Source of the DNA: a virus
Taxonomy: Duplodnaviria > Heunggongvirae > Uroviricota > Caudoviricetes
DNA: 59,893 bases
IMG/VR virus record: IMGVR_UViG_3300011399_000001
Coordinates: 64,001-123,893 of that record
Reading direction: 5' to 3' (one strand)
Both the position numbers and the translations under genes were made by a program. The notes beneath the pieces are model-generated. The model worked only from the letters and a program-made list of their open reading frames with translations. It was not told the DNA's origin and searched no databases. Within the stretch, counting starts at the first letter, position 1. Each line of letters opens with the position of its first letter. Below, one piece after another: positions 2,290-19,294 of this stretch.

Positions 2290-2598
2290 ATGAGAGTTGC
2301 TGAAATTTGTCCAGATTGCGCCACATATATAAATGCGGCTTGTATTATTTATAATGGGGAATACCTCCCTGCTATAAATGTATCTCCTTTAGACTCCCTA
2401 GATGATATTCTTGAGAATATTAATGATGCTTATTCTGCATTAGAGGGGGAGGGGGAGCCTACTACAATTCCTCTATTTGTGGGGCAATTATATGTGGACA
2501 CTGAAAACCTCAATTTATACATAGGTCTTGGTACAGATAGTGTAAATTGGGGCTTAATTGGTCCTATTACAACTACTTCTACTACTACAACTTCTTAA
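2290..2598 (+). CDS. Small Cys-rich virion protein with Thr/Ser-rich C-terminal tail
   Basis: CPDCATYINAACIIYNGEYLP module shared with the next gene; ends ITTTSTTTTS. Confidence 0.6.
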   Translation: MRVAEICPDCATYINAACIIYNGEYLPAINVSPLDSLDDILENINDAYSALEGEGEPTTIPLFVGQLYVDTENLNLYIGLGTDSVNWGLIGPITTTSTTTTS

Positions 2599-4664: not shown

Positions 4665-4999
4665 TGGAAGACATAACCACTTTAAAACAAGAACTCCAAT
4701 CTATGGAAAGCAGACTTACAGAAATGGAAGATAAAATAGATTCTATAGATGGTAAGCTTACACAAGTGGTAGATGCCATTTTAGGAAATCCTTTAACAAA
4801 ACAGGGGGGTTTTATTGCTGAAATTGAAGATTTAAAAAAACAAATTGCTTATTTAAAAGAAACTATCGAAACTCTACAAGAAAAACAGAGAAAAACTGAT
4901 AAGTTTAAAGATAGGGTAATTTGGGCATTAATGGTTATAGGAATATTGGCAGGGATAATTAAATTTCTTACCACTGTCTATGCAAATATAAATATATGA
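4664..4999 (+). CDS. Coiled-coil protein with C-terminal TM helix (holin/XhlA-like lysis protein)
   Basis: Heptad-rich N-terminus, C-terminal VIWALMVIGILAGIIKFL; lies within a membrane-protein cluster. Confidence 0.5.
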   Translation: MEDITTLKQELQSMESRLTEMEDKIDSIDGKLTQVVDAILGNPLTKQGGFIAEIEDLKKQIAYLKETIETLQEKQRKTDKFKDRVIWALMVIGILAGIIKFLTTVYANINI

Positions 5000-5364
5000 A
5001 CGAAAACTTTTTTGTAGTTCTGTCTATTATAGGAGCAATTATATTGTTCTTTACATTTAGAGCTATAAAAAGAGCTATTTTAAGACTTTTTGGAGGAAGT
5101 ATAGAACTTCCAGAAGCAGCAGGAGTGTTATTCGCAGGACTTTTTACATACATGGTGCTTAAGGAGGGACAGAGAACACACGAATGGCATTATTATAATG
5201 AACTTTATATATTCTTTACTGCTAGTGCTGCAATGATAGGACTTGGTTTAAAGCAAGTTTTAGAGACATATAAAGAAATAAGACTTGGAAATTCAGGTAA
5301 TTCCACAGTAACAAATACACAAACGCAGGAAAGAAAAGTGACAAATGAGCCAGATATACAATGA
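4996..5364 (+). CDS. Multi-TM membrane protein, putative holin
   Basis: Three hydrophobic segments and a charged C-terminus; ATGA-coupled. Confidence 0.5.
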   Translation: MNENFFVVLSIIGAIILFFTFRAIKRAILRLFGGSIELPEAAGVLFAGLFTYMVLKEGQRTHEWHYYNELYIFFTASAAMIGLGLKQVLETYKEIRLGNSGNSTVTNTQTQERKVTNEPDIQ

Positions 5365-5966
5365 AATTAAATTTAATCGCTTATATTACAATTGCTCTTC
5401 TTATTTGTGTAATTTTATTACAGAATAAGTGTTCTTCTCCTACTCCTCCTAAAGAAACAAGAGATACGGTGGTTGTTTATAAAACAATACATGATACTAT
5501 TCTTGGCGAAATTGTGTATTTAAAAGGAAAAACTGTCAAAGATACTGTATGGCTTACATCAGAAGAAAATAAACCTGATAGTACATATGAAGGACTTTTG
5601 AAACAATATAACTTCTTGGGAAATAAATATTACGAAAAAAGGGTTTTTAAGACAGATTTTCCAATAGCAGATTATGGCTCTGTGACAGTATATGATACAA
5701 TTAAAGCAAATTCTCTAATAGGAAGTTCTATAATTACTGATTTAAACATCCCAATCACTACAATCACTGTAACAAAAGAAGCTCCCATTAAAAGACAACT
5801 TTATGTAGGTTTTAGTTTAACAGGTAATTCTCCAGCCCCTATTAATGGAGTGTATGTAGATGTAATATTTAGAACAAAGAAAGACAGACTTTATGGTGTG
5901 TCTATGGGGTATAATGGAGAACCAATATATAAAATAAGCCTATTGTGGCCTTTGAAAATAAAATGA
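5361..5966 (+). CDS. Putative spanin-like envelope protein
   Basis: N-terminal hydrophobic anchor ending near a Cys, DTV/HDTI repeats, C-terminal alternating beta strands as in Bacteroidota phage spanin candidates. Confidence 0.5.
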   Translation: MKLNLIAYITIALLICVILLQNKCSSPTPPKETRDTVVVYKTIHDTILGEIVYLKGKTVKDTVWLTSEENKPDSTYEGLLKQYNFLGNKYYEKRVFKTDFPIADYGSVTVYDTIKANSLIGSSIITDLNIPITTITVTKEAPIKRQLYVGFSLTGNSPAPINGVYVDVIFRTKKDRLYGVSMGYNGEPIYKISLLWPLKIK

Positions 5967-6370
5967 ACGAAATAATAGCTTTAATAATTCTTTGTATTCC
6001 TCTTATTTGGGAACTTATAGATGACAAAAAAGGAGACCTCCACCCTAATAAAGATTGGGTAATAAGAGGAGGTTTAATGTTAATAACTTCTGCTCTTACA
6101 TTATTGTTTGTTGATAGAGGATTTTTACAAGCTTTTGGTATGTCTTTTGGTATATTCGTTCTCTTTTTCCCGTACCTCTATAATATTTTCAATAAGAAAA
6201 AACCCTGGTATAATTATTTAAGCCTTACCGCTTTTCCTGACAAATTGACAATATGGAGAATGACTCCTTGGTCAGTAAGAATGGGAATATTGGGAATTAT
6301 ATTTGGTATAGGGCTTTCGTTTTATTTTTGGGAAGAAATAATGGCAATTAATTACCCTTACGGACGTTAA
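5963..6370 (+). CDS. Membrane protein
   Basis: ATG 5963 (MNEIIALIILC) overlaps the previous stop; four hydrophobic segments. Confidence 0.55.
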   Translation: MNEIIALIILCIPLIWELIDDKKGDLHPNKDWVIRGGLMLITSALTLLFVDRGFLQAFGMSFGIFVLFFPYLYNIFNKKKPWYNYLSLTAFPDKLTIWRMTPWSVRMGILGIIFGIGLSFYFWEEIMAINYPYGR

Positions 6371-6371
6371 A

Positions 6372-6503
6372 ATGGCAAAATCAACAAAATCTAATAAGCA
6401 AGTAGGTAAATTGTCTTTTGGGAAGAAAAAAATAGGTGTTCATAAAAAACATAAAGGTCCAAAAGAGAAAAATGTAAAGAAATATCAGGGCCAAGGCCGT
6501 TAA
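6372..6503 (+). CDS. Small basic protein (43 aa) ending KKYQGQGR
   Basis: Read manually, not in track: MAKSTKSNKQVGKLSFGKKKIGVHKKHKGPKEKNVKKYQGQGR. Confidence 0.65.
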   Translation: MAKSTKSNKQVGKLSFGKKKIGVHKKHKGPKEKNVKKYQGQGR

Positions 6504-8387: not shown

Positions 8388-8801
8388 ATGTCATATTTCA
8401 TAAAAACAGGTTTTTGGGAAAAAGCCGCAAAAGGATATAAAGGATGGTTGAATTTAGAGGATGCTTTAAATCAAGACTTTGTAGCTGTATCTAATAGTGA
8501 TGTAGCATTAACAGATGCTGCAACAATGGATATATCTTCTACAAAACAAACTCTAACCTCTTCTTCTGCTACAAGAACATTTACAATTTCATATGTAGGA
8601 GATGATAGTACAATAGAGGTAATATTAAACACTACATCAGCCACATATACATTTCCTGCTACAGCATTATGTGTATCAGAAGGAGTGGCTTCAGGAGACA
8701 ATTTACTTGTATTAGCAGGAGTTTCAGGAGACAAATATATAATTGGTATTAAAAAAATAGGTTCGGCATATTATGTTGTAGCCAAAAATTTTGGACAATA
8801 A
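8388..8801 (+). CDS. Virion/tail-associated protein
   Basis: Track ORF; Ser/Thr-rich beta composition within the tail cluster. Confidence 0.55.
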   Translation: MSYFIKTGFWEKAAKGYKGWLNLEDALNQDFVAVSNSDVALTDAATMDISSTKQTLTSSSATRTFTISYVGDDSTIEVILNTTSATYTFPATALCVSEGVASGDNLLVLAGVSGDKYIIGIKKIGSAYYVVAKNFGQ

Positions 8802-9877
8802 TGAGTTTTTTTCATAGTTTACTTTGTAGTTCTTCTGATAGACTTAGTCTTATTGGAGTTAATAATATGATTGCTGGAGGAGATTCATATACAGAAGGAT
8901 TATATGCAACAAGTACAGCAAATAGATATATCAATATATTCCAGACAACAAAAGGAATTTCTACATTAACTAATGTAGGACAAAATGGAGCAGGTGCTGT
9001 TGAACAAATAAATGCCATTAAAAATCTCAGTTATACTTCGTCTTCTACATTATTAACAGCAATGTTAGGACTTAATGAAATTAGAAGAGGAGGTTCAGGA
9101 GCTAAAACTTTAAAACAAATTGAGGCAGGATTTTTGTATTATATTAATAAGCATATAGGAACGAATAGAGTTGCTTCAGGGTCATCTTCTGTTACTAGAA
9201 CTGGTACATTTCTTAGTACTGATGCAACTGCAAATGGAGCTGTTTATGGAGCAGGTGCTTTTCCTGGCAATGTTTCATCTTATACAACAACTCAAAATTC
9301 TCAATGGGAATATTCATTTTCAGGAACAAAAATTGGATTTGTTACTTTTGGTGATGACGGTACATTTAATTATGGACGTATTGATATTTATATTGATAAT
9401 ATACTTCAGGAAACTATGGATTTGTCAAGTTGGGCATCTGGATTAGAAACTCCTGCAACTTTCTTTAATAGAGTGATTCCAGTTTCTAAAATGATTTTTG
9501 GATTAACAGATACATCACATACACTCAAGATAGTGGCTAAGGATGTGGGAAAAATTGTATTCGTAGATTATTTCTTCACTCCTGCTTCTCCTGTTAATAC
9601 TGGACCTATATTATTCGGAGAAATACCATATTTGACAACTGCTGGCTATGCTACTTTTTCACCAACTTATAATAGCGGCTCAGTTGCAGCAAGTGATTCT
9701 GCAAGTGCAATTATACAATCTCTTGTCGCAACGTATAAATTGCTCGGTTACAAAATAGCATACGTTCCTATAAATAATTTTCTTGATTTGACAACAAGTT
9801 TAGACCCTGATTTGGTTCACAGAAATGATATTGGTCATGCTCAAATGGCAACAGCATTCTTATCTAAAGTTACATAA
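8801..9877 (+). CDS. SGNH/GDSL-type hydrolase with inserted beta-sandwich domain
   Basis: Block I GGDSYTEG, block II GQNGAG, block III MLGLNE, block V DLVHRNDIGH. Confidence 0.75.
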   Translation: MSFFHSLLCSSSDRLSLIGVNNMIAGGDSYTEGLYATSTANRYINIFQTTKGISTLTNVGQNGAGAVEQINAIKNLSYTSSSTLLTAMLGLNEIRRGGSGAKTLKQIEAGFLYYINKHIGTNRVASGSSSVTRTGTFLSTDATANGAVYGAGAFPGNVSSYTTTQNSQWEYSFSGTKIGFVTFGDDGTFNYGRIDIYIDNILQETMDLSSWASGLETPATFFNRVIPVSKMIFGLTDTSHTLKIVAKDVGKIVFVDYFFTPASPVNTGPILFGEIPYLTTAGYATFSPTYNSGSVAASDSASAIIQSLVATYKLLGYKIAYVPINNFLDLTTSLDPDLVHRNDIGHAQMATAFLSKVT

Positions 9878-9896: not shown

Positions 9897-10916
9897 ATGA
9901 GAGAATTAAAATTTTTATGCGTCCAACCAGATGACGATTATTATATCTGGCAGGTACATTTATGGCTAAATAGTCTAAAAACAATAGGACATATTGAAAA
10001 AGCCATTGTTTTAATATTCACTCCTGATTTCAGAGAATTAAATGTTAAATGGAAAGACCTAGAGATTTTATTCCCTGAAGCAGAGTTTACCTATTATAAA
10101 GACGAACATAAGCTTTCCAAATTATTAGGACTTTACATTCCTATTCTACGTCCTTATACTTTAATGAGATATTTTAAGGATAAGTCAAAAATGTCTGAAA
10201 AGGCTATTTTCTATTGTGATTGTGACATTCTGTTTACAGAGAAATTTGATATTTCTTCATTTATACAAGATGAAGTTTGCTATCTTTCTAACACTCTCTC
10301 ATATATAAATGCTACATATTTTGATAGCAAAATCAAGGATGTAAAACCTGAAATGTTGGAAGAATATAAAACAAAGGATATTTTACAAGAAGTTACAGAA
10401 ATGGTTGGTATTAACAGGGAGATGGCTGAAAAATGGAATTTACATTCTGGAGGAGCTCAATATTTGTTAAAAAACGTAGACTATAAGTTCTGGGACAAGG
10501 TGATAACTGATTGTATTAAAATCAGAACCTATCTACAAAGAATAAACAAACAATTCTTTGAAAACGAAAATAAAGGTTTTCAAAGTTGGTGTGCTGATAT
10601 GTGGGCTGTTTTATGGAATCTTTGGCTGTTAGACAAAGAGACCAAGGTGGTGAAGGAAATGGATTTTGCATGGGCTTCAGACCCTATTTCTAAGCTAGAA
10701 AATGTAGGAATATTACATAATGCAGGTATTACCTCTTCTTTACAGGGAGATATTCCTGTATTCTATAAAGGAACCTATCATCAAGGAAAGTCTCCCCTCT
10801 CTGACCCCTATTTAGAAGAGGTATTAAATAACGAAAAAAGTAAAACTCTCAGTAGTTGGTATTATGCTGATAAACTTTCAAAATTAAAAGATATACATAA
10901 TTTATATGGAAAATAA
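9897..10916 (+). CDS. GT-A-fold glycosyltransferase (DxD)
   Basis: FYCDCDILF DxD motif, GGAQYLLK, WCADMWAVLWN, ILHNAG. Confidence 0.65.
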   Translation: MRELKFLCVQPDDDYYIWQVHLWLNSLKTIGHIEKAIVLIFTPDFRELNVKWKDLEILFPEAEFTYYKDEHKLSKLLGLYIPILRPYTLMRYFKDKSKMSEKAIFYCDCDILFTEKFDISSFIQDEVCYLSNTLSYINATYFDSKIKDVKPEMLEEYKTKDILQEVTEMVGINREMAEKWNLHSGGAQYLLKNVDYKFWDKVITDCIKIRTYLQRINKQFFENENKGFQSWCADMWAVLWNLWLLDKETKVVKEMDFAWASDPISKLENVGILHNAGITSSLQGDIPVFYKGTYHQGKSPLSDPYLEEVLNNEKSKTLSSWYYADKLSKLKDIHNLYGK

Positions 10917-11757
10917 TAAAAAAGACCTAAAATCATTTATGCGAGTTGATGGTCAAGGTCGTGTAATAGCTGGTTCAAATATTCTTAGGAAAAATAAACC
11001 TAAGGTTGGTAATTGGATACAAATTCAAGCATATGCTTGTTGTGACCCAGATTTCCCACTTACTCCTGGGGGGGGAGCCACTCCTGATTTTGTAGAAGAA
11101 GTACTTGGTGTTGGAAATAGTCCATTTGTTTGTGATACTTTAGGAACGGCTGAAGATTTTGCCGTATTATCTGATCAAGCAATTAGTAATACAGGAAATA
11201 CCGTAATTACTGGTGATTTAGGACTTCACCCTGGAACAGCAGTAACAGGTTTCCCACCTGGACTAGTAGTAGGAGAACAACATATTACAGATGCTGTTGC
11301 ACAACAAGCACAAATAGATGCTACAGCAGCATTTACTTGTTTAAACGATTTAACTGTAACTGATAGTGTTGGTGCAGATATTGGAGGAGAAACATTAGTA
11401 GCAGGAGTATATTCTGTTGGAAGTTCTTTAGGTATAACCGGAGAATTAACATTGGATGGTGCTAGTAATCCAGATAGTGTATGGGTATTTAAAATTCCAT
11501 CAACGTTGATTACAGCCACAGATGCTCTTGTGACATTAATTAATGGAGCCAGTGCATGTAATGTATATTGGTTAGTAGGAAGTTCTGCTACATTAGGTAC
11601 AAATACAGAAATGGTTGGTAATATTATAGCTGTAACATCTATTACATTAACTACTGGAGCAACTCTAACAGGTAGAGCAATAGCTCTTGGAGGTGCTGTT
11701 ACTTTAGACAGTAATGAAATTACATCTTGTGAATGTACTGTTAACCCTTGTTCTTAA
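10906..11757 (+). CDS. DUF3494 ice-binding-like protein with N-terminal phage module
   Basis: FAVLSDQAISNTGNTVITGDLGLHPGTAVTGFPPG ... LTLDGASNPDSVWVFKIPSTL ... ACNVYWLVGSSATLGT ... GRAIALGGAVTLDSN closely follows the DUF3494 consensus. Confidence 0.9.
   Translation: MENNKKDLKSFMRVDGQGRVIAGSNILRKNKPKVGNWIQIQAYACCDPDFPLTPGGGATPDFVEEVLGVGNSPFVCDTLGTAEDFAVLSDQAISNTGNTVITGDLGLHPGTAVTGFPPGLVVGEQHITDAVAQQAQIDATAAFTCLNDLTVTDSVGADIGGETLVAGVYSVGSSLGITGELTLDGASNPDSVWVFKIPSTLITATDALVTLINGASACNVYWLVGSSATLGTNTEMVGNIIAVTSITLTTGATLTGRAIALGGAVTLDSNEITSCECTVNPCS
11068..11075 (+). repeat. G8 homopolymer in the linker of the ice-binding protein gene
   Basis: cctGGGGGGGGagcc, encoding PGGGA between the two domains. 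Confidence 0.9.
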
Positions 11758-11769
11758 ATAAAAAATATT

Positions 11770-11949
11770 ATGGCAAATAATCAAAAAATGAAAGCTTTTG
11801 TAAGATATGATGAAACAGGAAGAATTATTCCTGGAAGTCTCATATTAAGAAGAAATAAACCTACAGAAAAAGGGTGGGTGCAAGCACAAGCTTATGAGTG
11901 CTGTGATCCTTTTTTACAAACAACTTCCACTACTACTACAGCACCTTAA
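11770..11949 (+). CDS. 59-aa stand-alone module paralogous to the IBP N-terminus, with Thr-rich tail
   Basis: Read manually: MANNQKMKAFVRYDETGRIIPGSLILRRNKPTEKGWVQAQAYECCDPFLQTTSTTTTAP. Confidence 0.75.
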   Translation: MANNQKMKAFVRYDETGRIIPGSLILRRNKPTEKGWVQAQAYECCDPFLQTTSTTTTAP

Positions 11950-11969
11950 CTCGTATATAAAACCAACAT

Positions 11970-12623
11970 ATGAGAATAATAGTAGCTGTTGTAGTACACA
12001 ATAGGTTTAAAAATATTGAAGAATGGGTGAGATGCTGGAATCTTTGTGAAAAGGAAAACACAGAATTCATTGTTATTCATAATTTCAAAACTGAAGAGGA
12101 CAAGCAAACATATGAGGAATTATGTAAAAATAACAATATTACATATATTCCCCGTAAGAATATAGGGATGGATATTGGTGCTCTACAGGATGTCTGTAGA
12201 GGTCGTCTGGAAGGATTTCCCAATCAATGGGACTATCTTTTATGGTGTACAGATGATGTCATCCCAATGTCCAAGAAGTTTATTTCTTATTATATGAGAG
12301 AAATACAACGTCCTAATGTAGGGGTTGTATGTTTAGAAGTGTCTAAAGAAGTTAAACTACATATTAGAACAACAGGGTTTATAATGAGTCAGGAAACAGC
12401 AAGCAGAATATCATTTCCTGTAGAAACTATCACTACTAAAGACCATTGTTATGAATTTGAACATAGAAGCAGGAATGCTTTTTATGAACAAATTAAAAGG
12501 CAAGGAAAAACCGTTAAACAAGCACATTCCAATTTTAAACATGATGTTTTATGGGATATTCATATAAGACATGCATTAGATAGATGGGAAGAACATTATA
12601 AAGAATTTCCTCTTGCAAAATAA
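11970..12623 (+). CDS. RgpF-like/GT-A glycosyltransferase, paralogue 1
   Basis: RKNIGMDIG motif, WCTDDV acidic motif; aligns end to end with 13278..13922. Confidence 0.55.
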   Translation: MRIIVAVVVHNRFKNIEEWVRCWNLCEKENTEFIVIHNFKTEEDKQTYEELCKNNNITYIPRKNIGMDIGALQDVCRGRLEGFPNQWDYLLWCTDDVIPMSKKFISYYMREIQRPNVGVVCLEVSKEVKLHIRTTGFIMSQETASRISFPVETITTKDHCYEFEHRSRNAFYEQIKRQGKTVKQAHSNFKHDVLWDIHIRHALDRWEEHYKEFPLAK

Positions 12624-13269
12624 CATCACTATAATATCCCCTATTTATAATACATTTCCTGAAATTATAGGAAGTATGATAAATCAGACATATAGTAATT
12701 GGACTCTATTATTGATACATGATGGGCCTAATTCTACTAATTTACAGGCTTTAATTGATGTTATTAATGATCCTCGTATTAAATATATTGTCACTCCTGA
12801 GAGAAAGAATATTTGGGGTCATCCTATAAGGAAGTGGGCAATAGATAATATAGACGAATTAGCTCCAAATACAGAATATATTGTAATTACAAATCCTGAT
12901 AACCATCATACACCTCATTATCTTGAATATCTTTTAAAGGGATTTAAAAATCCTTCTATTGTAGCAAGTTATTGTTCTCAGTTTGTTCATGCATACGAAT
13001 CATGGCAAAAAACTACAATAGTAGAAAATATGACAAAATCAACAGATAAAATTGATTGGGAAGTATATAAATATGGTATAATAGATACAAGACTCAAACT
13101 TGGTTATCTAGATGCTGGTTGTGTTATGGTTAAGAAAAATGTAGCTAAAGAAATAGGATGGAATTCATTAAATCATGAAGCAGATTGGGATTTCTTTAAT
13201 ACAATAATAACTAAATATGGAGAAGATAAATGGCAAATAGTACGCGGTTGCTTATTTATACATAATTAG
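12613..13269 (+). CDS. Family 2 glycosyltransferase
   Basis: ITIISPIYN...SMINQTYSNWTLLLIHDG GT2 N-terminal signature; TTG start. Confidence 0.8.
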   Translation: MQNNITIISPIYNTFPEIIGSMINQTYSNWTLLLIHDGPNSTNLQALIDVINDPRIKYIVTPERKNIWGHPIRKWAIDNIDELAPNTEYIVITNPDNHHTPHYLEYLLKGFKNPSIVASYCSQFVHAYESWQKTTIVENMTKSTDKIDWEVYKYGIIDTRLKLGYLDAGCVMVKKNVAKEIGWNSLNHEADWDFFNTIITKYGEDKWQIVRGCLFIHN

Positions 13270-13277
13270 CCTGAAAA

Positions 13278-13922
13278 ATGAATATAATTATAGTTGTCTG
13301 TATATATGATAGGTATGAAAATCTTAGAAAATGGCTACATGCTTGGCAACAATGTGAACAATTAGAAGCCAAATTAATTTTTGTGAATAACATTCCTGAA
13401 GGAGCTACAGATGTGGTTTTTTGGAGGGAATTTTGTGAAAATAAGGGGGCTGAATATATAGAAAGAGAGAATATAGGCTTTGAAACAGGAGTTATACAGG
13501 ATGTTATAACAGGTAAAATAGAGAAAGAATGGGATATTTTATTCTTTTTTACTGATGATACTTTACCTATTACAAAAAATTTCCTACCTTTGTATATTGA
13601 AGAGCTTAAAAAGCCAGATGTGGGGGTGGTATGTATGGAGATTTCAGGGAGATATACTCCTCATGTACGTACTACAGGATGGTGTATAAAAAAAGAGGAG
13701 GCTGATAAATTAAAGTTTGTTAGTTCTTCTATAACAAAGAAAGAAGAATGTTATGATTTTGAACATACAGGAGGTGAAAATACCTTAATGTCTCAAATTC
13801 TTAATATGAACAAAATGGTGATACAACAGTCAAATATTGAAAATAGTGCAGTTTGGGACACACATAATAGTAAAATAAACAGATGGAAAGAATGGCATGA
13901 CACCTTTCCAGGATATAAATAA
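13278..13922 (+). CDS. RgpF-like/GT-A glycosyltransferase, paralogue 2
   Basis: RENIGFETG, FFTDDT, VGVVCME, HVRTTG, CYDFEH shared with paralogue 1. Confidence 0.55.
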   Translation: MNIIIVVCIYDRYENLRKWLHAWQQCEQLEAKLIFVNNIPEGATDVVFWREFCENKGAEYIERENIGFETGVIQDVITGKIEKEWDILFFFTDDTLPITKNFLPLYIEELKKPDVGVVCMEISGRYTPHVRTTGWCIKKEEADKLKFVSSSITKKEECYDFEHTGGENTLMSQILNMNKMVIQQSNIENSAVWDTHNSKINRWKEWHDTFPGYK

Positions 13923-13928
13923 ACCAAT

Positions 13929-15854
13929 ATGAAAATCGTATTATTCGGAGTTTCTGGAACATTAGGAAAAGAGCTCAAAAAACTAAATCCTGAATTAATT
14001 TGTCCTACACATTCTCATGTAGATATTACATTGGGGGGGAGGGTGATGGAATACATTAGAATGCATAAACCAGATGTGGTAATTAATGCTGCTGCTATTC
14101 TAAACAATTCTCCTTCTGAAAAAGCAATAGATGTTAATATTGTAGGGGCTGCTAATTTGGCAATGGCATGTATAAAGAATAAAGCAAGACTTGTATATAT
14201 TTCTTCAGATTATGTCTATAAAGGAGATAGGGGAAACTATTCAGAAGAGGATGAACTCCTCCCTTTTAATTTTTATGCATGGACTAAATTAGGAGGTGAA
14301 TGTTCTGCAAAAGGTGTTGAAAATCACCTTATTATTCGTACTTCCTTTGGTGCATCAGAATTCCCCTACCCACAAGCTTTTAGTGATAAATTCTCCTCTA
14401 AAGATTATGTAGATGTGATAGCTCCTTTAATATTAGAAGCAGCTTTAAGTGATTTAACAGGTGTTTTAAATATAGGGACAGATAAAAAGACATTGTACGA
14501 ATATGCTAAAAAACGTACTCCAAATGTATTCTCTATAGAAATATCACAGAGTCCCTTCTCCTCCCCTTTAGATACTTCTCTTAATTTACAGAAATGGACA
14601 GATTATAAGACAAATTCCTCTGTAAAACTTCATAATAAATGCCGTTGTTGTAATTCCTATCGCTTCACTAAGTATTTAGACTTAGGGGCGCTTCCGCTTG
14701 TTAACAATTTAGCTAATACAAAAGAAGAGGCCCTCTCCAAAGATAGATTCCCTCTTCAAATCATGTTTTGTGAGGAATGTGGACTTTCACAGCTATCGGT
14801 GGTTGTATCTCCTGAAAAACTCTTCTCTTATTATACATACAGAAGTGGTATAAATGGAGGGTATGTGAAACATTGTAGGAAAATGGCTAAAACGCTAAAA
14901 GATAAATACAATTTAAGTGAAAAGTCGTTTATAATAGATATAGCAGGAAATGATGGAAGTCTTTTAAAACAGTTTAAAGAGGAGATAGGATGTGATGTTC
15001 TAAATATTGATCCTGCAACAAATCTTGCAGAAATAGCGAGAAGTAATGGAATACCTACTTGGCCTGTTTTTTGGGAATATGAAGTTGCTCAAACGTTACG
15101 CTTGAAAGGAGATTATGCAGACATGATTGTAGGCACAAATGTATTCGCCCACGTAGATGATATAAAGGAGTTTTTAGAAGGGGTTAAAATAGTCTTAAAA
15201 CATAAGGGGGTGCTGGTGCTTGAATTTCCCTATTTAATTGACTTTATAGAGAACTTAGAATTTGACACCACTTACCATGAACATCTTAGTTATATGAGCC
15301 TACAACCTCTATATAAGCTCTGTAGCACTCTTAATTTAGACATCATTGATGTAGAGAAGCAGGACATTCATGGAGGTACTGTGAGGGTTATAATAGGCCA
15401 TAAAGGGGTTCTCCCAATAACCCCTAATGTACATCATTTTCTACAGGAGGAAAAGAATGCTGGTTTTGGTGAAATAGAGAGGTATAAGGATTGGGAGCTC
15501 TCTGTTAATAGTTTAATTCATGAGCTAACTTTTTCTCTTCGTCATATAAAGGCCAAAAATCACAAAGTTGCAGCATTTGCAGCTTCAGCTAAAGGAAATA
15601 CTCTTCTAAATTCAGCTAAAATAACCTTTGATACAATTGATTATATTGTAGATCAGACACCTGAGAAAGTGGGGAAATTTAGTCCTGGAACAGGAATCCC
15701 TATTGTTGATATAGACGAATTAATTAAAAATCCTCCAGACTATCTCATTATTTTAGCTTGGAATTTTAAAAACGAGATAATGGAAAAATGTAGAAAATTG
15801 GGCTACAAAGGGAAATTTATAATTCCCATCCCTAAATTTGAAATTATAAATTAA
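13929..15854 (+). CDS. Fusion of RmlD-like NDP-4-keto-sugar reductase and NDP-hexose C-methyltransferase
   Basis: N-half GVSGTLG, YISSDYVY, YAWTK (YxxxK). C-half CRCC/CEEC Zn site, DIAGNDG, NVFAHV, YHEHLSY, HGGTVR, ASAKGNTLL, KVGKFSPGTGIPI. Confidence 0.9.
   Translation: MKIVLFGVSGTLGKELKKLNPELICPTHSHVDITLGGRVMEYIRMHKPDVVINAAAILNNSPSEKAIDVNIVGAANLAMACIKNKARLVYISSDYVYKGDRGNYSEEDELLPFNFYAWTKLGGECSAKGVENHLIIRTSFGASEFPYPQAFSDKFSSKDYVDVIAPLILEAALSDLTGVLNIGTDKKTLYEYAKKRTPNVFSIEISQSPFSSPLDTSLNLQKWTDYKTNSSVKLHNKCRCCNSYRFTKYLDLGALPLVNNLANTKEEALSKDRFPLQIMFCEECGLSQLSVVVSPEKLFSYYTYRSGINGGYVKHCRKMAKTLKDKYNLSEKSFIIDIAGNDGSLLKQFKEEIGCDVLNIDPATNLAEIARSNGIPTWPVFWEYEVAQTLRLKGDYADMIVGTNVFAHVDDIKEFLEGVKIVLKHKGVLVLEFPYLIDFIENLEFDTTYHEHLSYMSLQPLYKLCSTLNLDIIDVEKQDIHGGTVRVIIGHKGVLPITPNVHHFLQEEKNAGFGEIERYKDWELSVNSLIHELTFSLRHIKAKNHKVAAFAASAKGNTLLNSAKITFDTIDYIVDQTPEKVGKFSPGTGIPIVDIDELIKNPPDYLIILAWNFKNEIMEKCRKLGYKGKFIIPIPKFEIIN
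14033..14039 (+). repeat. G7 homopolymer near the 5' end of the RmlD-methyltransferase gene
   Basis: ttGGGGGGGagggtg. Confidence 0.85.
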
Positions 15855-15861
15855 ATATATT

Positions 15862-16257
15862 ATGGCTGAATTATTATTCTCAACAGAAACAACTTTTTCA
15901 TTAGAAACAGTGGCTGGTAAATTGACATATTTTCATGAACAATTACATTTATTACATTGGCAGACAACAAGTTATGCTGAACATCAAGCTCTTGGAAGTT
16001 TGTATGAATATGTTCATGGTTTTAAAGATGGGGTGGTTGAAAAACTTATGGGATATTTAGGAAGGCGTCCAAAAGCATTTAAAATACCTCTGATAGTAGA
16101 TAATATCACTCCTATAATGGTGGTGGATAATTTGTGTGATTTTGCATATGATTTATATCTTTGGGCAGGAAAAAATGACTATTGTGATGTAGAGAATTTA
16201 GCTCAAGAGTTGAGCGGAGAGGGTGCAAAAACTAAATATTTGTTAACTTTGTCATAA
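15862..16257 (+). CDS. Ferritin/Dps-like four-helix protein (DUF5856-like)
   Basis: QLHLLHWQTTSYAEHQALGSLYE...D..VE motif. Confidence 0.7.
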   Translation: MAELLFSTETTFSLETVAGKLTYFHEQLHLLHWQTTSYAEHQALGSLYEYVHGFKDGVVEKLMGYLGRRPKAFKIPLIVDNITPIMVVDNLCDFAYDLYLWAGKNDYCDVENLAQELSGEGAKTKYLLTLS

Positions 16258-16286: not shown

Positions 16287-17069
16287 ATGATTTGTATTTA
16301 TAAAATTACTTCTCCTACTAACAAAATTTATATTGGTCAAAGTTGGGATTGGGTAAAAAGAAAAAGTGTTTATAAAAGAAGTGCTTGTCCTAATCAATTG
16401 TATTTATATAATTCTCTTAAAAAATATGGATGGGAAGCTCACAAAATAGAAATATTATTAATTTTTACAAATAAAATATCTCAAGAATCTCTTGATTTTT
16501 ATGAAACTTATTGGTGGAAATTTTATAAAAAATTAGGATTTAAAATGTTAAATATTAAAAAACCTGGAAGTAATGGTAAATTATCTGAAGAAACTAAAAA
16601 GAAGTTAAGTAAAGCGTTAAAAGGAAGAAAGTTGTCTCAGGAATGGAAAGATAATATAGGAAAAGGATTAAAGGGTAGAACTGTTTCAGAAGAAACTAGA
16701 ATAAAGATAGGATTAGGTAATAAAGGTAAAATTATATCAGAAGTATCTAGAGAAAAAATTAGGAATAAATTAACTGGTAAAAAACTTTCAAAAGATATAA
16801 TTGAAAAAATAAGAATATCTCATATTGGTAAGAAATGTTCTGAAAATACAAAATTAAAAATATCGAAAGCTAATACTGGTGTTAAAAATGGTATGTTCGG
16901 TAGAACTGGACTTTTAAATAAAGGTTCTAAAAAAGTAATAGATATTGCTACTGGTACTATTTTTCATTCTATTTCAGAAGCAGAAAAAACTTTAAACATT
17001 AATAAAGGAGTATTAGTTAATAAACTGAACGGTAGAACTAAAAATAACACTTCTTTGCAATATGTGTAA
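16287..17069 (+). mobile_element. GIY-YIG homing endonuclease with NUMOD3 repeats
   Basis: CIYKITSPTNKIYIGQS; repeated SEETKKKLSKALKG motifs. Confidence 0.9.
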
Positions 17070-17536: not shown

Positions 17537-17806
17537 ATGGAAGATGTTAAAAAACCTACAAAGTATGATCCTAATAAGAATTATAAGTGGACACCTACTA
17601 CACAATTTGTTCTTAATGGAGATGAGTTTGGTGCTACCATTAATGCTTTACGCAAAATAATGGCTTCCCCTGAAGCACAAGCAATACTTGCTGCTGAAAG
17701 AGCTCATTTTATGCTAGATGATGCACTGGCAAGAGCTGTTGAAAAAGACGATGCTATAGAATCAATACCAATAATACCCCCAACACCAAAAAAGGAGCCT
17801 AACTAG
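17537..17806 (+). CDS. Hypothetical protein
   Basis: Track ORF; last gene of the + module. Confidence 0.6.
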   Translation: MEDVKKPTKYDPNKNYKWTPTTQFVLNGDEFGATINALRKIMASPEAQAILAAERAHFMLDDALARAVEKDDAIESIPIIPPTPKKEPN

Positions 17807-17817
17807 CTCCTTTTTTT
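17788..17817. terminator. Bidirectional intrinsic terminator at the module convergence
   Basis: AAAAAAGGAGC-ctaacta-GCTCCTTTTTTT. Confidence 0.85.
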
Positions 17818-17825
17818 ATTGAATT

Positions 17826-18548
17826 TTATAAATGAATATAACTGGTATTGTTTAGAACTGACCCATTCAATTTTGCTCTAAAAGTACTATATTTAATATT
17901 TGCTGAGATATTTGCTTCAAGAACAGAATCGTAATAAATACCATTTTCTAAATTTAGGACAGGAGTTCTTATTCTTTCAAGTGTTTCTTGTTTATGCTTC
18001 TTTCCATAAAACCCATTCTTTTTACCTGTCATTTTATCTTTTAATGATTTTGATATTTTTTCTCTTGTTTCTTTAGAATGTCTTTTTCCATAAAATGGGT
18101 TTTTATCACCTCTAGAAGCATTCCCTATTTTATTTTTAGATTCTTCAGAATGATTCCATCCTTTTCTATTCATAGCTTTTCTTACATGTTCAGGTCTTGG
18201 TTTATCTTTATATTTATTTCTTAAATATTCTTTAGTTTTTTCTGAAACAATATGACCATGACCTCCGTCTCAACCATCTGTCATATTAGCTAAAATACCA
18301 GTCTTTTTGTCTATTCTTCCATATAATTTGATGAACTCTATTTCTTTTTGTAAAGCTTCTTCTGGTGTTAAATCATCTAAAACTATCTCTATTTCAAAAA
18401 GAGATTTGTTTATTATTCTATTCCAAATAATATTTCTACCATGTTTAAATTCTGATCTTTCATAGTTATCAAATTCTTCTAATCCTCCTACTCCTATATA
18501 AAAAGGTTCATTTTTATCATTTCTAATATGTCTGTAAAGATATGCCAT
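17826..18548 (-). pseudogene. GIY-YIG/NUMOD3 homing endonuclease interrupted by one in-frame TGA
   Basis: AYLYRHIRNDKNEPFYIGVG...NMTDG*DGG...HSEESKNKIG; the two track ORFs are in one frame, separated by TGA at 18270-72. Confidence 0.85.
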
Positions 18549-19294
18549 TATTTTTTAACAAAATCTTCTAACATTTTTTGGTAGTCTAAATCCCAATGTG
18601 GTTTTAATTCAACAATTCCCGTAGGTATAAATCCTTTTAAACGCAGATTCTCTACATGTAGAGAATGTCTTTGTATTATATTTGGTCTATCAGGAGTATC
18701 AAAAGATTGGCCCGACTGATGATAAACTCCTCCATTTTGAGGCATGTGCCATCTATAAAACCAACTAACCTCTGTATCAGGAGGATGAGCATTAACAATA
18801 TACTGAGACCCTAAATCATGTATTTTATTCCTAAGGATAGAATCACCACAAGCATTTATTTGTGGAGACTTACCGATAGCTTCCCAAGCCTTTTTACTAT
18901 GTACCATACCAGAATTCCCAACATAACACAATTTGGTTATTTTAGGAGTATTATAATATGCCCCATTTGCCCAATGGAGAATGTTAGTATCATCTTTCCA
19001 ATATTTTTTAATATTCTTCAAATGCCAAGGTAAGAATACATCATCGTCATCGGCAGTAGCAATAAGGTCTCCATTACATTTTTCAATAGTGAAGTTTTCT
19101 TTTTCTCCTATAAGTGAAAACGTTTCCTTTAAATTAAAAATTCTCACTTGAGGATGATCAAATATTAATGTCTGTAAAGGATAATCATTGACGATTACCA
19201 ACTCGGCATCATTTTCCTCTTGTAAGAGGAAGCTCTGTAAAGCTTCCTCTAAAAAAGCCACTCTACCATATGTCAAACATTTAAAACTAACCAT
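18548..19294 (-). CDS. Family 2 glycosyltransferase
   Basis: CLTYGRVAFLEEALQSFLLQ...VIVND...ADDDDVFLPWHL. Confidence 0.75.
   Translation of the reverse strand: MVSFKCLTYGRVAFLEEALQSFLLQEENDAELVIVNDYPLQTLIFDHPQVRIFNLKETFSLIGEKENFTIEKCNGDLIATADDDDVFLPWHLKNIKKYWKDDTNILHWANGAYYNTPKITKLCYVGNSGMVHSKKAWEAIGKSPQINACGDSILRNKIHDLGSQYIVNAHPPDTEVSWFYRWHMPQNGGVYHQSGQSFDTPDRPNIIQRHSLHVENLRLKGFIPTGIVELKPHWDLDYQKMLEDFVKK

Follow-up and report, generated by a model that had tools for sequence, protein, structure and literature searches.

A candidate peptidyl-threonine glycosyltransferase linked to poly-threonine tracts in phage structural proteins, and an accessory sugar cassette in one lineage

Genes for sugar-handling enzymes that lie among the structural genes of a phage raise the question of what they modify: the particle encoded by their neighbours, the surface of the host or the phage DNA. 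The question is posed here by a stretch of 59,893 nucleotides (the window), bases 64001-123893 of the IMG/VR virus record IMGVR_UViG_3300011399_000001 (Caudoviricetes), which is 123,893 bp long, has direct terminal repeats, is rated complete and comes from what we take to be a crAss-like phage of 124 kb. The initial annotation of positions 9897 to 15854 of the window had proposed that this phage makes a methyl-branched deoxysugar and assembles an oligosaccharide on its own particle, and all the open reading frames (ORFs) named in that proposal are present on the plus strand at their positions. The data presented below point to the product of ORF 9897, termed GTX, as the probable first enzyme of such a pathway and to poly-threonine (poly-Thr) tracts in particle proteins as its likely targets, while a neighbouring cassette of four genes may build on what GTX begins.

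GTX (9897-10916, plus strand) is a glycosyltransferase of GT-A fold that resembles the hydroxyproline O-arabinosyltransferases (HPATs) and the serine galactosyltransferase SGT1 of plants. It matches phrog_4417 with an E-value of 8.5e-53, a family that carries an unknown-function label, and 748 clusters at 50% identity make up the GTX family. An AlphaFold2 (AF2) model based on an alignment of 71 relatives reached a predicted local distance difference test (pLDDT) score of 97, the score of single-sequence folding being 34, and the model gave 193 matches to the PDB at E<=1e-3, all of them GT-A transferases among the matches listed. The fold, together with a DCD motif, bears out the earlier identification of a DxD glycosyltransferase. 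D108, D110 and H274 are unchanged across the 71 relatives, DxD...H being the metal-site pattern of GT8 type. GTX has no transmembrane segment, and searches of PDB sequences with its sequence and family profile returned nothing useful.

In the Swiss-Prot AlphaFold library, the top eight matches of GTX are Arabidopsis peptidyl-serine alpha-galactosyltransferase SGT1 (E 8.6e-10, TM-score 0.64) and seven hydroxyproline O-arabinosyltransferases of the HPAT/RDN/PLENTY group (TM-score 0.60-0.63), with the whole protein covered. Taken as a set, SGT1/SERGT1 (CAZy GT96) and HPAT1-3, RDN1/2, PLENTY and NOD3 (CAZy GT95) match GTX residues 2-339 with TM-scores of 0.60-0.64 and E-values from 1e-6 to 9e-10, and share with it the GT-A fold and the DxD motif. 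Plant and algal SGT1 and HPATs put the first sugar directly onto hydroxy-amino acids in repetitive, disordered tracts. The likeness is structural and distant, with only 10-13% sequence identity; GTX is soluble and lacks a membrane anchor, unlike the plant enzymes, which reside in Golgi membranes, and its acceptor would be threonine rather than serine or hydroxyproline. GT8 enzymes follow the plant matches in the same library with TM-scores of 0.40-0.48. Among solved structures the nearest are glycogenin (Z 14.4) and the Skp1 galactosyltransferase AgtA (Z 14.2), then the UGGT catalytic domain, LgtC and pneumococcal GlyE, whose glycosylation target is a serine-rich repeat protein. Across glycogenin, AgtA, UGGT and GlyE the Z-scores are 13-14.4 over 213-250 aligned residues; these GT8 enzymes act on proteins or protein-bound glycans and have the same DxD...H metal-site pattern, but identity is about 10% and GTX has no match to the Glyco_transf_8 Pfam family.

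HPAT appears only in a language-model neighbour cluster of GTX, on 10% of its members. A further indication comes from the company that the domain keeps: in longer relatives the GTX domain shares a polypeptide with GT6, GT2, methyltransferase, protein O-fucosyltransferase and Skp1-type N-acetylglucosamine-transferase domains. Because of such fusions, GTX fits an enzyme of glycan assembly lines. It is its linkage to poly-Thr tracts from which we infer that GTX transfers onto a peptide hydroxyl.

A search of the whole genome for tracts of at least six threonine or serine residues ([TS]>=6) found five ORFs, all on the virion-gene strand, three of which lie upstream of the window and had not been named in the initial annotation. 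The first of the two within the window encodes a Cys-rich small protein of 102 residues (2290-2598, plus strand) with the C-terminus ITTTSTTTTS, a candidate O-glycan acceptor; its Thr/Ser run is written in mixed codons (ACA/ACT/TCT) and its orthologue in the complete relative G001 ends in STTTTTTTHP. The second encodes a candidate acceptor of 59 residues (11770-11949, plus strand), an anchor module with the C-terminus TTSTTTTAP. Upstream of the window, a 386-residue protein (genome 28347-29507) ends in ITTTSTTTTVWPTTSTTSTLIP and had no match in PHROG, Pfam or the deposited phages, a 1580-residue protein (genome 36975-41717) matches a PHROG 'virion structural protein' at 1.7e-101, and a 177-residue protein (genome 41720-42253) carries a further Thr/Ser tract. 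In the 1580- and 177-residue proteins the tracts are internal linkers, not tails. Orthologues in two complete relatives retain the Thr tags. On the comparative evidence, the Thr runs on particle proteins are likely to be the acceptors of GTX.

The anchor module recurs in ORF 10906 (10906-11757, plus strand), where it forms residues 1-48 and is followed by an ice-binding-like DUF3494 beta-solenoid (PF11999 at 8.4e-59); the N-terminus is 58% identical to ORF 11770 over the shared 48-residue module. These two genes are the virion-type genes that the initial annotation had described as interleaved with sugar genes, one of them ending in a Thr run, and that description is borne out. In relatives the module carries BspA-type leucine-rich repeats (LRR_5), DUF285 or Lcl_C as cargo instead. 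Because these cargo domains are of adhesin type, the module probably serves to attach interchangeable surface cargo to the particle, and the ORF 10906 product is likely a surface-displayed cargo protein. The linker between its anchor module and ice-binding domain contains a G8 run (11067-11086), which the terminator scan registered only as a weak hairpin.

A total of 284 GTX relatives are on record in IMG/VR, and 80 of their loci were examined. Anchor-module genes are present in 79 of the 80, one to four per locus and mostly directly 3' of GTX, and a long C-terminal tract of type TTTTTTTAAPTTTTTTT is present in most copies. The synteny survey of related contigs that the initial annotation had called for thus places GTX and a poly-Thr tract side by side, with a tract at most 1.5 kb downstream of GTX in 70 of 74 contigs. 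In the related loci, of about 20 kb each, 251 of 279 tracts are within 1 kb of GTX and none of the 279 falls in the minus-strand module. These contigs all belong to one clade, so that such counts are not independent events.

Independent lineages are sampled by cultured phages, where GTX homologues occur in 77 deposited records. Ten were read: phiFL1A, VPE25, 1706, iLp84, LP65, Iacchus, Staphylococcus phage RQ1, Clostridium phage FA88, bIL285 and Chryseobacterium phage MA9V-3. They come from unrelated phage groups with differing gene orders, and in all ten the GTX homologue is part of the block of head or tail genes, near proteins with Thr-rich tails or repeats that are often the major head or tail protein itself. 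In phiFL1A, for example, the homologue sits between the major tail protein, which has a C-terminal Thr/Ser run of 25 residues, and the tail chaperones, and the C-terminus of the major head protein is TTTTTTT. LP65 is exceptional in having repeats of the TTTETQTQTQ type in place of pure runs. It also has an 'EPS sugar transferase'-like gene, orf42 (L090:8067-8864), some 3 kb 3' of the GTX homologue; other GTX phages may therefore also possess extender enzymes.

In three of the ten phages the stop codon of the gene that precedes GTX is closely followed, or overlapped, by a poly-Thr stretch that is in another frame and lacks a start context of its own (VPE25 L088:3755-3880, bIL285 L084:5962-5979 and RQ1 L086:5620-5931). 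The preceding gene is the capsid gene in VPE25 and bIL285 and the major tail gene in RQ1. A programmed frameshift could add the Thr tag to only a fraction of the subunits in these phages.

The tracts could instead be mere flexible spacers or low-complexity linkers, with GTX acting elsewhere, on a host wall polymer or receptor, and adjacency being the result of hitch-hiking. The internal position of several tracts, as in the 177- and 1580-residue proteins, suits such an explanation, as does the fact that no glycan has been demonstrated. Against it are orthologous tail proteins, in which the tail and GTX are jointly present or jointly absent: orthologues of the phiFL1A tail protein in Javan47, 315.6, cIP1 and phiJL-1, 50-60% identical, stop just 5' of the start of the tail and are followed directly by the chaperone gene, with neither a Thr tail nor GTX in the stretches read. 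No GTX match was found in the deposited collection for the groups of the three Streptococcus/Pediococcus phages, and phiJL-1 is absent among the matches listed. Furthermore, a six-frame scan found no Thr tract in 94.8 kb of GTX-unlinked DNA, compared with 43 in the 116 kb of the ten GTX-linked loci; adjacency recurs across unrelated phage groups despite their differing gene orders, and the nearest folds to GTX are those of peptide O-glycosyltransferases acting on repetitive hydroxy-amino-acid tracts. A spacer role is therefore considered improbable. From its fold, its domain fusions, its adjacency to Thr tracts in many lineages and this joint presence and absence, GTX is quite probably a peptidyl-Thr O-glycosyltransferase and is the candidate initiating enzyme.

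What the remaining sugar genes of the window contribute is a separate question, and the largest of them is the best defined. ORF 13929 (13929-15854, plus strand) was initially annotated as a fusion of a reductase and a C-methyltransferase, which Pfam, structure-profile matches and motifs confirm for both halves: an RmlD-like NDP-4-ketohexose reductase (NDP, nucleoside diphosphate) is joined to an NDP-sugar 3-C-methyltransferase of the TylC3/MtmC/TcaB9 type. The Pfam domains run in the order RmlD_sub_bind, Methyltransf_13, Methyltransf_23 and Methyltransf_14, the last three matching PF08421 at 9e-16, PF13489 at 7e-11 and PF08484 at 1e-45 and representing the zinc-binding, SAM-binding and C-terminal domains expected of a sugar 3-C-methyltransferase. 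Residues 236-640 align end to end with MtmC (4rv9, 6.5e-76), KijD1 and TcaB9, with the zinc-finger cysteines and the YHEH motif in register with MtmC. Residues 1-143 align to RmlD (3sc6, 6e-17), and the translation contains the short-chain dehydrogenase/reductase motifs GVSGTLG (GxxGxxG, nucleotide-binding) and YAWTK (YxxxK, catalytic). The RmlD part is short, at about 230 residues, and covers Pfam profile positions 1-176 of 287; against TIGR01214 it scores 6e-28, below the cut-off, with only the N-terminal 140-176 profile positions matching. The solved 3-C-methyltransferases serve the synthesis of antibiotic sugars, chiefly of the 2,6-dideoxy or amino kind; what sets ORF 13929 apart from MtmC, KijD1, TcaB9, TylC3 and RmlD is that homologues of both activities are joined in one polypeptide.

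The proposal that the phage makes its own methyl-branched deoxysugar stands only in part. The fusion enzyme has intact motifs, but not all of the pathway is encoded: RmlA and RmlC are missing from the genome, as is a separate dehydratase, for neither PF00483 nor PF00908 is matched and the sole PF16363 match is the fusion itself. The host would therefore have to supply the 4-keto-6-deoxy sugar.

Three putative transferase genes precede the fusion. The middle one encodes a soluble GT2 glycosyltransferase (12613-13269, plus strand), as annotated, with PF00535 matched at 5.3e-9 and 36.7 bits, above the gathering cut-off of 23.3, as well as weak WcaA/TuaG-like matches and no transmembrane segment. 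On either side of it are GTa1 (11970-12623, plus strand) and GTa2 (13278-13922, plus strand), which had been described as two paralogous RgpF-like proteins. They are indeed paralogues (37% identity, E 5e-55), but the RgpF label fails, since neither has an RgpF match in Pfam at E<=0.1 or NCBIfam at E<=0.01. GTa1 reaches PF00535 at 2.2e-4 with 21.6 bits, below the same cut-off, and GTa2 has no Pfam match, its language-model neighbours including GT2-bearing clusters. The GTa family, which is probably GT-A-like, has some 30 relatives, all metagenomic, in which T92-D93-D94 are invariant; its profile matches SpsA weakly (E 0.063), and an hhalign comparison with the neighbouring GT2 is likewise weak (E 0.054). 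A second GT2, GT2b, is encoded on the minus strand at 18548-19294, outside the region originally annotated (PF00535 at 1.4e-9, 38.5 bits), and, of 46 relatives with sufficient flanking sequence, 31 carry it, sharing 28-60% identity (48-60% in most). Transmembrane segments were absent from all nine proteins examined, a set that covers every transferase, the fusion and the Thr-tailed proteins.

The cassette of GTa1, GT2, GTa2 and the fusion is known from five contigs, namely the window, L012, L104, L106 and L107, three of which came to light through the GTa family. All five also hold GTX and a Thr-tailed anchor gene, the cassette being seen only in GTX-bearing genomes of the clade, and in four of them it stands directly 3' of the Thr-tailed gene. 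The Thr/Ser tails of the small anchor proteins measure 4-7 residues in the five cassette phages and have a median of 14 (range 7-41) in cassette-free relatives, which could reflect a trade-off between number of sites and size of glycan or shared ancestry only.

The observed genes, folds, motifs and co-occurrence are best accommodated, with somewhat better than even confidence, by two tiers of glycosylation, carried out in the host cytoplasm on proteins of the phage particle itself. Tier 1 would be common to the clade and to many unrelated phages: GTX, soluble and metal-dependent, would take a host nucleotide-sugar as donor and attach the first sugar to threonines of the poly-Thr tracts that five structural-module proteins bear at their C-termini or close to them (2290, 11770 and the 386-, 1580- and 177-residue proteins). 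Tier 2 would be lineage-specific, with GT2b, GTa1, GT2 and GTa2 lengthening the sugar laid by GTX step by step, and the fusion turning host-made NDP-4-keto-6-deoxyhexose into NDP-3-C-methyl-6-deoxyhexose as one of the donors. The choice of threonine as acceptor, the donor sugars and the order of steps are those that we infer for this scheme. A common glycan for Tier 2 and GTX is suggested by enzymes that are soluble, that have been seen only with GTX and that directly follow a Thr-tailed gene; this evidence is thin, and the shared glycan is considered possible, at slightly less than even confidence. The earlier proposal of an oligosaccharide on the phage's own particle is accordingly supported for ORF 9897, by fold and comparative linkage, as an initiating transferase directed at protein, and its extenders and cap are only plausible.

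Several observations weigh against this two-tier scheme. None of these phages is known to carry a glycan. GTX has no Pfam match at E<=0.1, the HPAT family PF23452 included, and belongs to no NCBIfam family, and its 71 relatives have no Pfam match at E<=0.01; the GT-A status of GTa1 and GTa2 is only weakly indicated by their sequence scores; and the presence of the small anchor proteins in the virion is deduced from the adhesin-type cargo borne by the same module. The clade-wide nature of the contig counts given above is a further reservation. The cassette is rare, occurring in one of the 80 related loci, and its location is an operon junction where cargo genes gather. In L107 it lies on the other strand, within the opposite, non-structural operon and adjoining GT2b; the cassette behaves as a mobile unit and not as a fixed part of the tail module. 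Nor is the fusion special to phages; its full-length relatives number at least 1764 and are 56-70% identical. Other copies exist in phage-like contigs, and one that is 57% identical (L108:9001-10941) stands beside sulfate-activation genes in a bacterial ABC-transporter O-polysaccharide cluster with an ABC-2/Wzt transporter, WbsX, GT2, GT8 and epimerases. Around two fusion copies, one in that bacterial stretch and one in a phage stretch (20 kb each, L108 and L109), neither GTX nor Thr tracts were found.

The rarity of the cassette, its place at the junction and in the L107 non-structural operon, and the kinship of the fusion to the bacterial copy are also what keep alive the main rival explanation, host-surface remodelling. 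Here GTX would still tag virion proteins, and the cassette, perhaps with GT2b, would be cargo from a host polysaccharide cluster that might, for example, add or cap units of O-polysaccharide or capsule borne on undecaprenyl on the inner side of the membrane; superinfection could thereby be blocked or progeny kept from sticking to debris. Peripheral GT2 enzymes without transmembrane segments, such as that of the cassette, are normal in ABC-dependent O-polysaccharide synthesis. However, the cassette and its immediate surroundings encode no flippase, polymerase, bactoprenol transferase or any membrane protein; the cassette has been seen only in genomes with GTX and Thr-tailed proteins and follows the Thr-tailed gene in most instances; the phage is also probably lytic, which would make classic seroconversion less expected. 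Host-surface remodelling is thus a live rival, albeit an unlikely one. Seroconversion of the O-antigen by a Gtr-type system was rejected on the absence of membrane segments from the nine proteins.

Transfer to DNA was the other target to be weighed: some of the transferases might glycosylate a hydroxylated pyrimidine in phage DNA, as an anti-restriction hypermodification. DNA glycosylation with phage-made sugars has precedent in the arabinosyl-5-hydroxycytosine of RB69 and DLP3 (PMC13326640), and GT2b is at the end of an operon that holds RecA. Against this, the complete genome contains no homologue of a ThyA-type hydroxymethylase or of a hydroxylase, and GTX is linked to Thr tracts and not to nucleotide genes. 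Because a ThyA-type enzyme is missing, DNA glycosylation is rated very improbable.

Genes of the window run on the plus strand to about 17.8 kb and on the minus strand thereafter. At 17788-17816 a hairpin terminator with an 11-bp stem and A- and T-runs on both sides, at the point where plus and minus operons converge, is the sole strong one that an intrinsic terminator scan detected in 1-20 kb of the window. Since the operons converge at about 17.8 kb, the cassette region is the 3' end of the late operon, 3' of the fibre-like genes; these lie 5' of GTX, and ORF 7641 among them matches PHROG tail-fibre families. What the initial annotation called 'embedded in the tail module' is better put as the convergent junction of late and early operons.

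Other genes at this junction are recorded for completeness. Directly 5' of GTX, a gene for 358 residues (8801-9877) has a weak SGNH/GDSL hydrolase match (1.7e-4) and may encode a tail protein of the glycan-esterase type; in the relative L104 a Laminin_G_3 plus GDSL protein (4677-6446) lies in the corresponding neighbourhood. A Dps-like DUF5856 gene (15862-16257; 'starvation-inducible regulator' in PHROG) is kept 3' of the anchor genes in 74 of the 80 relatives. Between it and ORF 17062 lies a NUMOD-type homing endonuclease (16287-17069, plus strand) that is present in only five of the 80. At 17826-18548 on the minus strand, two adjacent ORFs match profile positions 180-258 and 268-377 of one homing-endonuclease PHROG, and since the matched parts are consecutive, the pair resembles a single copy that has been split or is decaying. 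A homing-endonuclease fragment was the only match of the window to deposited phages in DNA searches.

Glycosylation of virions as such is already known, and has been established experimentally for mycobacteriophages and giant algal viruses. In chlorovirus PBCV-1, A64R (PDB 2p6w) is likewise a virus-encoded, cytoplasmic GT-A enzyme involved in glycosylation of the capsid of its own virus, with a weaker match to GTX (Z 10.9); PBCV-1 capsid glycans are N-linked and the host is a eukaryotic alga. For the mycobacteriophages Che8, Corndog and Myrna, virion glycosylation was reported by Freeman et al. in 2023 (Cell Host Microbe 31:1216; cited in PMC12582341 and PMC13313380); glycosyltransferases of the phages' own, in some cases together with methyltransferases, reportedly decorate the virion proteins. 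The present system is like theirs in that a phage-encoded glycosyltransferase is genetically linked to virion protein genes; it differs in hosts and lineage, in having an initiating enzyme of phrog_4417 and in being known here from genes alone. A literature search found no published description of the GTX family, of poly-Thr tags or of HPAT-like glycosylation in phages, and the addition made by this window is the sugar-building cassette together with the conserved second GT2.

At its broadest, the proposal is that poly-Thr is a portable glycosylation tag read by a single phage family, phrog_4417, a distant structural relative of the plant enzymes that glycosylate extensins, in phages ranging from siphoviruses and myoviruses of Bacillota to crAss-like phages of Bacteroidota, and that the cassette of this lineage elaborates a multi-sugar chain containing 3-C-methyl-6-deoxyhexose. 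Taken as a whole, this is put forward tentatively, as something less probable than not. The idea is directly testable because VPE25, phiFL1A, 1706, LP65 and iLp84, all carriers of GTX homologues, are well-studied cultured phages.

If true, phages of lactic acid bacteria, enterococci and staphylococci, as well as the crAss-like phages of Bacteroidota, would commonly have sugar-coated particles, with a bearing on phage stability, adherence to mucus and other surfaces, receptor masking and recognition by antibodies in phage therapy. An enzyme encoded by one gene and a short peptide tag would be easily recognised in genomes and might serve the glyco-engineering of phages. The cassette, for its part, gives a candidate function to the orphan GTa family of about 30 proteins and suggests that phages diversify their glycan with rare branched-chain sugars.

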